Assembly: GCA_034521815.1 (NCBI GenBank)
Contig: JAXHLW010000001.1
Location: 279,907 to 343,906, forward strand
Source of the DNA: Trueperaceae bacterium
Lineage (GTDB): Bacteria; Deinococcota; Deinococci; Deinococcales; Trueperaceae
Reading direction: 5' to 3'
Length of the DNA: 64,000 bases
A program made the position numbers. Shown in pieces: positions 51,001 through 54,000 of the stretch. Position 1 is the stretch's first letter, and every line of letters starts with the position of its first letter.

Positions 51001-54000
51001 CGCGATCGATCCGTCGGCCTCGTTCCTGGGCAGGCGCATGTCGGCGCCCCTGTTCGTCGGCGCGATGACGGGCGGGGCCGAGCTGTCGGCAAGCCTGAAC
51101 CGGAACCTCGCGGTCGCGGCGCAGCGCGTCGGGGTCGGGATGATGCTGGGCTCTCAGCGCGTGATGCTCGAGACCCCGTCGGCAGCGTCCACCTTCGCGG
51201 TTCGGCGCCACGCGCCGGACGTCCCGATCCTCGGCAACCTCGGCGCCGCCCAGCTGAACCTGGGCTACGGCGCGGCCGAGATCGTCCGGGCCATCGACGC
51301 GGTCCAGGCCGACGGCCTGGCGCTGCACGTCAACCCGCTTCAAGAGGCGATGCAGCTCGGCGGGGACGGTGACTTCGCGGGCCTGCTCGCCAAGCTCCAG
51401 CGGCTGCCCGCCGAGGTGGGGCGACCGCTGGTGCTCAAAGAGGTGGGTCACGGGCTGGACGCCGGCACCGTCGCGAGCCTGTCCACCGCCGGATTCGCCG
51501 CGTTCGACGTGGCGGGTGCCGGAGGGACCTCGTGGGCGCGGGTCGAGGCGTGGGTGCGGTGGGGCGAGGTCCGTAGCGAGGATCTCGCCGAGTGGGGCGT
51601 TCCGACGTTGACCGCGTTGCGTTCGGCACGCGTCGCGGCGCCCGGTGTCGACCTGATCGCGTCGGGAGGCATCCGCTCCGGGCTCGACGTCGCGAAAGCG
51701 ATCGCGTCGGGCGCGTCGTGGTGCGCCGTGGCGCTGCCGTTGCTGCGGCCCGCGACCGAATCGGCCGAGGCCGTGGAGGCCGTGCTGCGGCGCTTCGTCC
51801 ACGAGCTCAGGATCGCGATGCACGCCGCCGGCGCCGCCGACCTCGCGGCGCTGCGCGGCATCGAGACGGTGCCGCGCCCTGGCTGACCCCCCGACTCCAC
51901 ATCGACCCCTCGCCGAAGGTGCGCCGACCGTGCGCCGACCGCCGTGCGCCGACCGTGCGCTGCCCCTCATTTCTTCTGGCCTTTCATGTCTGGTGGCCTT
52001 GCCGTAGGAGCTCGATCACGCGGAGGGCGTCGGGCCACGGGTCGGTGTAGAAGCGACCGTGCTGGTACGACACCACGTCCACGCCCGAGACGTCGAGGTC
52101 CCCGTAGAGACGCTCGAGGACGGGAAGATGGGCCGCGAGCTCGCCTCTGAAGTCGTCACTCTCCATCAGACGCGACGCCACGAGCTTCCGTCTGCCACGG
52201 AAGCGGAACACCAGCAGCAGCATCGACGCCTGCTGGAAGTAGAGGGGGTCGGGAAGGCGGACGTCGGTGGGCATGATCGGGAGGAGAGCCGGCGTCCCGA
52301 CGATCGGGGGCGTACGCGCGCCCGGGTCGGATCGGCTGCACCGCGCACGAGCCTACCCGATCGTCGAGCGGCCTGTGAGGACGAGGCCGTCGCCCGTAGG
52401 ACGCGGGCCGAGGTCAGGGCGACGATCGCCGCCGAGATGACGGCAGCTGCACTTGCGCGATCGCGCCGGACACCTTAGTATTTGAGGCATCGCCTCGACA
52501 CGCCGTTCAGGCGGCGTCGGAACGCACCCGGGGGCGCTTCGCGCGCCCGCTCAGGAGGACGTCATGAACGACAAGACCACGGAATCGGTCGACCTCGCGG
52601 GCAAGCGCCGCTCGCTCGACGCCACCCTCGCCGCCATCGAGCGTCAGTTCGGGAAGGGTGCGGTGATGCGGCTTGGGGACGAGTCGCAGCGGGAGAAGAT
52701 CGCGGTGATTTCGACGGGGTCGATGAGTGTGGATCTGGCCTTGGGGATCGGTGGGGTGCCGCGGGGTCGGGTGGTGGAGATCTACGGTCCGGAGTCGGGT
52801 GGGAAGACGACGCTGGCGTTGCACATCATTGCGGAGGCGCAGGCGGCGGGGGGCGTGGCGGCGTTCGTGGACGCCGAGCATGCGTTGGATCCGAGCTACG
52901 CGGAGAACCTGGGCGTGAACGTGAGCGATCTGTTGGTGTCGCAGCCGGATACGGGGGAGCAGGCGCTGGAGATTACCGAGCTGTTGATCCGGTCGGGTGC
53001 GGTGGATGTGGTGGTGATCGATAGTGTCGCTGCGTTGGTGCCGCGTGCGGAGATCGAGGGCGAGATGGGGGATGCGCATGTGGGGTTGCAGGCGCGGTTG
53101 ATGAGTCAGGCGCTCCGGAAGTTGACGAGCGTGCTGGCGAAGTCGCGGACGACGGCGGTGTTCATCAATCAGATTCGCGAGAAGATCGGGGTGATGTACG
53201 GCAATCCGGAGACCACGCCGGGGGGTCGCGCCCTGAAGTTCTACGCGAGTGTCCGCATGGAGGTGCGTCGCAAGGGGGACGTGAAGGTGGGGGCGGACAA
53301 GGTGGGGAATCGGACGCGGGTGAAGGTGACGAAGAACAAGGTGGCTCCGCCGTTCAAGGAGGCGGAGGTGGAGATCATTTTCGGTCGGGGGATCGACAAG
53401 ATCGGGGATCTCCTGGGCATCGCGACGGATCTGGATGTGGTGCAGAAGAGCGGGTCGTGGTTCTCGTATGGGGAGACGCGTTTGGGGCAGGGCAAGGAGA
53501 AGGCGGGCGAGTTTCTCGCGGAGCGTCCGGAGCTGTTGACGCAGATTCGTAGCGAAGTGACCGAGCGGCTGAAACCGAAACCGAAGGAGGACGCGGAGCG
53601 TCGCCAGCAGGCGTCCGAGGAAACGGTCGATGCTGCGGTCGATGCGGAGGTGGACGCGGACACGATCGCGGCCTGATCGGCGCCAGGGTACTCGTAGGGC
53701 ATTCGACACGGGCAGTCGACCCGTACGGATCGGTAGGATGCACGCACTTCTCCCCGTTGTCGCGCGGGCCCGCCGGGCCGCGTCGCGAAAGGAGTGCCGA
53801 TGGCCGATCCCCTGAGCACGTCCCGAGCCGCCACCCGGACCGAGGGGCGCCGGGTCTCAGACTTCTCGATCGTCGTCGCGACCGCCAATGGAACCGGCTC
53901 GCAGACCGCGAACCTGACGTTGCTGCGCGCCATTTTCCAGATGGGGGTCCCGGTTCACGGCAAGAACGTGTTTCCGTCCAACATCCAAGGGCTGCCCACC

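Follow-up and report, generated by a model that had tools for sequence, protein, structure and literature searches.

Deinococcus is the textbook example of a bacterium whose recA is outside the control of LexA. A palindrome in front of a recA gene of a Trueperaceae bacterium raises the question whether, in this neighbouring family, recA is governed by LexA after all. An earlier note had described the palindrome as a new LexA (SOS) box and had assigned recA to a LexA-run regulon. We analysed the locus within a 64,000-nucleotide stretch of contig C1, here called the window, from a genome of 2.63 Mb (G000; 71% GC, assembly 83.5% complete). The family assignment is that of the earlier note, and near homologues of a LexA from the same genus bear the label Trueperaceae. 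Read from the sequence, the palindrome is ACCTTA-GTATT-TGAGGC (ACCTTAGTATTTGAGGC, window 52472-52488). It is located between a divergent 96-aa ORF and recA, whose ATG (52564) follows after 75 nt. The following features were assigned in this region.

51984..52274, minus strand: ORF of 96 aa, divergent from recA and without an assigned family
52453..52458, plus strand: inferred weak -35, TTGCGC, 3/6 to TTGACA, read from the sequence
52471..52489, no strand: predicted LexA operator CACCTTA-GTATT-TGAGGCA, from the sequence and a matrix score of 26.8 bits
52476..52481, plus strand: inferred -10, TAGTAT, 17 nt past the -35 and within the operator
52553..52558, plus strand: recA Shine-Dalgarno sequence AGGAGG, apart from the palindrome, read from the sequence
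52564..53676, plus strand: recA, the stand-alone boxed copy, 370 aa, RecA by Pfam

The recA promoter is a putative one, since a consensus promoter scanner made no call for it in the window; the box would cover its -10. The 96-aa ORF, which had no match in Pfam or NCBIfam, could share the recA operator, though its start is approximately 197 nt away. By eye, a look-alike of this ORF is also divergent from a boxed recA in another family genome (G020).

Within the window alone the match is a weak one, as 8 of 100 shuffled sequences contained at least one match at one mismatch. In the whole genome, ACCTYA-N5-TRAGGY occurred, as reported earlier, at two places. One is C1:332378 (the recA site); the other, C1:107841, precedes a gene of the IMS family that is accompanied by an error-prone dnaE. 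The exact form CCTTA-N5-TAAGG given in the title of the earlier note has no site in this genome, the recA site reading TGAGG. With the looser CCTYA-N5-TRAGG a third site was obtained at C13:1370905, which scored below 8 bits with the matrix described below and is probably a chance match. It overlaps the stop of an ORF that we take to be mutS2-like, upstream of a HAD-like gene. Neither spacers of 3, 4, 6 or 7 nor the reversed pattern yielded any site in the genome.

Across the family the consensus is TACCTTA-N5-TAAGGTA, a 19-bp sequence longer than the title motif, from which the recA site of the window departs at three positions. CCTYA-N5-TRAGG was present in 59 of 61 family genomes, with 731 sites in total. 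The reversed control was present in 53 of the 61 (206 sites) and equalled or exceeded the pattern in several of them (for example, pattern to control 13:13 in G002 and 4:14 in G041). Because of this distribution of the control, presence in a genome proves little, and we dropped it as evidence; the case is carried by the position of the box. The stricter ACCTYA-N5-TRAGGT was found in 9 of 12 family genomes, at 33 sites against one for the control. When the pattern was loosened in five site-poor genomes, the control rose above it in four, and therefore only sites beside recognisable genes were used. In three other families (named by inference), ACCTYA-N5-TRAGGT had one site each in 16 of 138 genomes and the control had 14 sites, which is the level of chance. 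One family genome, G033, was counted in the 61-genome tallies and in one tree row, and no claim rests solely on it.

Of 121 matches to the S24 domain, 85, mainly the stronger ones, were fetched, and the genes were grouped by recognition helix and not by box. Among the main-type lexA genes (helix HY[VM][ST]L.QH), 46 of 47 had a site within four mismatches of the 19-mer, with 8, 15, 20 and 3 sites at zero, one, two and three mismatches, respectively, and thus 43 at two or fewer. The sole miss, G019, has the main helix together with a weak site of 10.6 bits. Two main-type genes were left out, one (G020a) as its catalytic motif failed the anchor and the other (G039) because its upstream DNA was lacking. 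The tally is to some extent circular, because the consensus was derived from the same promoters, and the related genomes are not independent of each other. An independent test is provided by a matrix built only from the lexA promoter sites of the relatives. Applied to the genome under study, it gave two hits scoring over 8 bits, one of 33.8 at the imuB cassette and one of 26.8 at recA. Of 30 matrices with shuffled columns, the best attained 26.3 and none came up to 33.8.

The lexA promoters displayed two geometries. In 24 of 46, a gap of 12 nt separates the end of TTGAC[AGT] from the box, so that the -10 occupies box positions 6-11; there it reads TANNNT in 18 and TAATAA in 6 of the 24. In 12 of 46, TTGAC[AGT] is located 23-34 nt upstream, and the box falls at or past the start site. 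The recA promoter of the window fits the first geometry, with the -35 offset from the box by 12 nt and the -10 inside it.

The lexA-only matrix exceeded 12 bits before recA in 28 of the 36 genomes from the recA search, or in 30 of 38 when two loci from the pattern search are included, compared to 4 of 1060 shuffled upstream regions. From this tally two loci were dropped as they had no upstream DNA, and three full-length hits as well as fragments were left out. Many family genomes carry two recA genes, and in all 15 two-copy genomes exactly one of them is boxed, the unboxed copy following, by eye, a cinA-like ORF in 12 of the 15. In the genome under study the second recA resides on contig C13 in the order cinA-recA-rny and has no box. 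The misses among single-copy genomes were mostly (five of eight) recA copies of the cinA operon. The two copies within a genome are 95-100% identical in their core, compared to 71-92% for the best other genome, and they cluster together in 15 of 15 genomes. The pair studied here (window 52564-53676 and C13:1275596-1276711) shares 98.6% identity over 984 nt with different ends, a figure that assembly collapse may have affected. In six genomes (G000, G010, G011, G024, G027 and G052), third codon positions are strongly G/T-rich.

The earlier note had also counted the imuB cassette among the marked genes. We fetched 30 of 33 imuB hits, 28 of them with upstream DNA. The main box (29-43 bits) is present at all 11 cassettes that lack a full-length lexA. 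It is also present at the two led by a main-like lexA, and the 15 led by a paralogue lexA have that paralogue's own box. In the genome under study, the box at C1:107840 takes up the entire 17-nt interval from TTCCGA to TATGCT. Two cassettes (L485 and L488, in G001 and G057) are headed, by eye, by an apparent lone LexA DNA-binding domain followed by a stop, with the main box upstream.

The imuB leaders contain a candidate cis-antisense small RNA (C1:~107648-107745, plus strand, corresponding to L476:2982-3079; leaders L477-L505). In 22 leaders, chosen by eye from the 28, an antisense -10 is located approximately 85 nt before a terminator-like hairpin and is of the extended form TGnTANNNT in 19 and plain in 3. 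No Rfam match was obtained in 10 loci. Pairs of the hairpin covary, 12 of 13 showing double changes in 19 sequences.

As noted before, lexA itself is missing from the genome under study. No S24 or LexA DNA-binding match was found in it, the family LexA profile gave nothing better than E 0.05, and a search by neighbouring genes found nothing, the Crp-type gene that neighbours lexA in both genomes of the same genus having no orthologue there. This invites the reading that the family's LexA acts as proposed while this genome has truly lost lexA, so that its recA and imuB-dnaE2 are unrepressed and the two remaining sites are relics, as the three departures of the recA site from the consensus might suggest. 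We regard a true loss as improbable. The assembly is incomplete, and both the Crp-type neighbour and uvrA were not found either, which favours a gap in the assembly over loss of lexA; in addition, both genomes of the same genus have lexA, and the imuB site has stayed near consensus despite a GC content of 71%.

The LexA proteins of the relatives are of canonical type. Those of G009 and G023 exceeded the cut-offs of both PF01726 and PF00717, and scores of 97-99 bits put the family proteins just under the cut-off of the TIGR00498 lexA model (110.95). Their Ala-Gly, Ser and Lys align with those of a solved LexA (E 1.5e-18), and these catalytic motifs are intact across the clade. The family LexAs form one clade apart from the Deinococcus-type LexAs (SH-aLRT 100). 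Both LexA trees are quick IQ-TREE runs rooted at the midpoint, and as they have no outgroup they give groupings and not the order of events.

The best evidence that LexA binds the box is that helix and palindrome change together. Paralogue LexAs with the helix Y[PS]TL.[EG]H have ACCCT-N9-AGGGT in 15 of 17 promoters, and the two misses show it in a separate reading of the imuB locus; this palindrome occurs in none of the 47 main-type lexA promoters. The main pattern, allowed two mismatches, also matches 5 of the 17 paralogue promoters. LexAs with the helix YTTL.QH have TACCC.A-N5-T.GGGTA in three of three cases, and in G022, where no LexA of another type was found, a shifted box that closely resembles it, TACCCCT-N5-TGGGGTA, precedes a DUF6504 gene. 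This covariation indicates that the palindrome in front of recA is very probably a binding site of the family's own LexA.

A different regulator could in principle occupy the box, the most plausible candidate being a protein of the Crp family whose gene is divergent from lexA. Such a Crp/Fnr gene is found beside lexA in six genomes (G009, G044, G010, G011, G029 and G032), and in two others (G023 and G036) a Crp/Fnr gene located elsewhere has a nearby box of its own. Yet binding by a Crp-type protein leaves unexplained why the boxes vary with the helix of LexA, as they do at the lexA paralogues. Moreover, in the divergent pairs the start of lexA is at most 14 nt from the box and that of the Crp gene 125-290 nt, the boxed gene set is SOS-like, and the sites of the Crp family, which resemble TGTGA-N6-TCACA or GTA-N8-TAC, are unlike the box. 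We therefore give this alternative very little weight.

A further reading takes the symmetry to be a by-product, either of a -10 located in the left arm together with a Shine-Dalgarno-like TAAGG in the right one, or of an RNA hairpin hiding the ribosome site. It has in its favour that the first in-frame start codon is within 5 nt of the box end in 33 of 46 lexA promoters and that the -10 often falls inside the box, but it is largely refuted and exceedingly improbable. The symmetry persists in promoters with the -10 upstream of the box (offsets of 23-34 nt) and in those whose start codon is at a distance of 32-105 nt. In the window, a separate AGGAGG serves recA 64 nt past the box, and the recA leader folds unremarkably and no better than shuffles (z -1.36). 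Elsewhere in the order, other families have the pattern at chance level only.

Control by LexA, with recA as part of the regulon, is, as the earlier note had proposed, the best reading of the locus. Beyond autoregulation, it is now supported by the covariation of helix and box, by the matrix that predicts recA and imuB, and by the finding of no IrrE or DdrO orthologue (see below). We consider it likely, by comparison of sequences, that a LexA specific to this family has the palindrome as its operator and regulates the stand-alone recA. The sequences themselves show the motif, where it is located, how it covaries with the helix, and that the catalytic motifs of LexA are intact; from established LexA biology we infer the steps of binding, repression, cleavage and induction. 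A LexA dimer on TACCTTA-N5-TAAGGTA would cover the -10 of the stand-alone recA and block RNA polymerase, and would likewise occlude the -10 of the imuB-dnaE2 promoter. Upon DNA damage, RecA filaments would trigger self-cleavage of LexA, which would free recA, imuB-dnaE2 and lexA and, in some relatives, uvrA, uvrB, photolyase and other genes. The unboxed recA of the cinA operon probably supplies the basal RecA that seeds the filaments.

The remaining regulon was examined in sites from complete or near-complete genomes, with a heuristic choice of ORFs. Repair genes with a box are uvrA (G032), uvrB (G052) and photolyase (G023), in one genome each, as well as a gene for an SRAP protein (G032) and one for a Rad52/22 protein (G036). 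A PA0069 radical SAM gene is preceded by variant boxes in three genomes (G019, G029 and G053). Many boxed genes of the relatives are not repair genes and encode glyoxalases, AraC, BrnT, GemA-like, DUF3072 and Crp-type proteins or unknowns. In the genome under study uvrB and the genes for SRAP and radical SAM are unboxed, and its visible regulon therefore consists of two promoters. In seven genomes the box is followed by a gene for a small protein of 62-121 aa with one hydrophobic N-terminal stretch (L307, L308, L050, L093, L098, L144 and L316). In this they are similar to SOS division inhibitors of the YneA/SidA kind, whether or not they are homologous to each other. Those scanned had no Pfam match, and none was found in the genome under study.

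Deinococcus differs from this arrangement at several levels. We scored the lexA promoter of D. deserti (lexA_P1), whose box had been left uncompared, and it lacks the Trueperaceae box (-11.2 bits); the plasmid-1 recA (recA_P1) scored -3.6 bits, and 28 Deinococcaceae lexA promoters reached at most 10.2 bits with the same matrix. The cassettes are alike in being led by LexA and in gene order, and the one in D. deserti is RecA-dependent. Unlike in Trueperaceae, the Deinococcus LexAs form a separate clade with other promoter palindromes, and recA is, according to the accessible parts of PMC8072749 and PMC6300522, controlled by IrrE/DdrO and not by the LexAs of D. radiodurans. Those parts give no LexA box for Deinococcus; in PMC6300522, DdrO is stated to be 86-97% identical among Deinococcus species. 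The IrrE/DdrO response resembles the system proposed here in that a repressor at an operator controls recA and repair genes and is removed by proteolysis. A further mark of the IrrE/DdrO regulon is a 17-bp RDRM in front of cinA-ligT-recA. In contrast, no orthologue of IrrE or DdrO was found in the 61 Trueperaceae genomes in searches run without a Deinococcaceae positive control: an IrrE-type query gave weak partial matches in 2 of 61, and the DdrO-P3 query matched in 19 of 61 at 33-44% identity, 22 of 24 match rows being confined to the HTH. By eye, TTGA-N6-TCAA-like dyads are located upstream of the lexA-imuY-DUF6504-dnaE operon of D. deserti and represent a candidate box of the MPP[DE]LT clade to which this species belongs, and TATC[TG]AA-N6-TT[AC]GATA is a candidate cassette box of the MPPRLT clade (L203-L225 and L247:37495-37552).

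A sister clade of LexAs was found in a family that we take to be Thermaceae (f3), comprising 6 of its 25 fetched S24 loci, five of which were placed in the tree (L319-L324, L335). An imuB-like gene follows the LexA gene in three of the six, and a related dyad, TACYTGT-N6-ACAGGTA or a form close to it, is present at every one of them. A scan of five genomes with the exact form gave matches in three, at lexA only.

The Trueperaceae box is a variant within SOS and no new kind of system. In common with classical RecA/LexA regulation it has a repressor of winged-helix and S24 type with Ala-Gly, Ser and Lys, a palindromic operator that would lie over the promoter, and boxes at lexA, recA, imuB-dnaE2 and sometimes uvr genes. 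The difference is in the operator, TACCTTA-N5-TAAGGTA, in a helix reading HYVSLKQH where the solved LexA of the alignment has RSPNAAEEH, in the two near-identical recA copies with one boxed, and in the very small regulon of the genome under study. A Methylorubrum (Alphaproteobacteria) LexA motif reportedly reads CTTAA-N3-TTAAG, which, if so, equals the inner core CTTA-N5-TAAG; it differs in being alphaproteobacterial and in having no outer TAC/GTA arms. If true, this lowers the novelty of the letters and not that of the regulon. The operators given in the accessible parts of PMC9578287 (Table 1) and PMC8565304 are CTGT-N8-ACAG for E. coli, CGAAC-N4-GTTCG for Bacillus and GTTC-N7-GTTC for Caulobacter. 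PMC8565304 also describes a Bacteroidetes SOS motif, CTAA-N5-TTAG, which is likewise a dyad with a 5-bp spacer that marks SOS genes, with different arms and a wingless phage-like repressor as opposed to the canonical LexA type of Trueperaceae. Our literature search, with subscription papers, RegPrecise and CollecTF outside its scope, yielded no description of a TACCTTA-N5-TAAGGTA box or of a Trueperaceae SOS regulon.

New LexA motifs are being reported phylum by phylum, and the present one is of interest because it contrasts with Deinococcus, accompanies a twin arrangement of recA and comes with a series of helices and operators. If LexA control holds, cousins of Deinococcus would switch on repair by classical SOS and not by the protease-based route; a LexA-boxed recA in a neighbouring family devoid of IrrE/DdrO would date the rewiring in Deinococcus, and whether radiation resistance in the phylum needs a protease switch would become testable. 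The palindromes of 19, 20 and 21 bp, with paralogues in one cell, offer a ready set for the study of changes in LexA specificity, and the lexA matrix predicts damage-inducible genes in the mostly uncultured Trueperaceae. On a broader scale, we lean slightly towards a scenario within Deinococcota in which a LexA lineage that recognises TACC half-sites (spacing of 11, 12 or 13 bp) rose in Trueperaceae from guarding imuB-dnaE2 alone, as in Thermaceae, to being the master damage regulator. A dedicated second recA, under its control, would have been kept near-identical to the unboxed cinA copy, the lack of IrrE/DdrO in a sister family would mark these as an innovation on the Deinococcus side, and the candidate antisense RNA may act as a second brake on mutagenesis.

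A search for the exact 19-mer across all genome contigs gave at least 120 matches; among the matches listed, 6 of 80 named rows were Deinococcota or Trueperaceae and the rest were scattered. A six-frame check of 120 listed flanks revealed one recA neighbour (L460) and one weak match to the LexA profile (L396, E 8e-4). In three Sphingopyxis records (L363, L380 and L409), the exact TACCTTA-N5-TAAGGTA is located in one conserved context.
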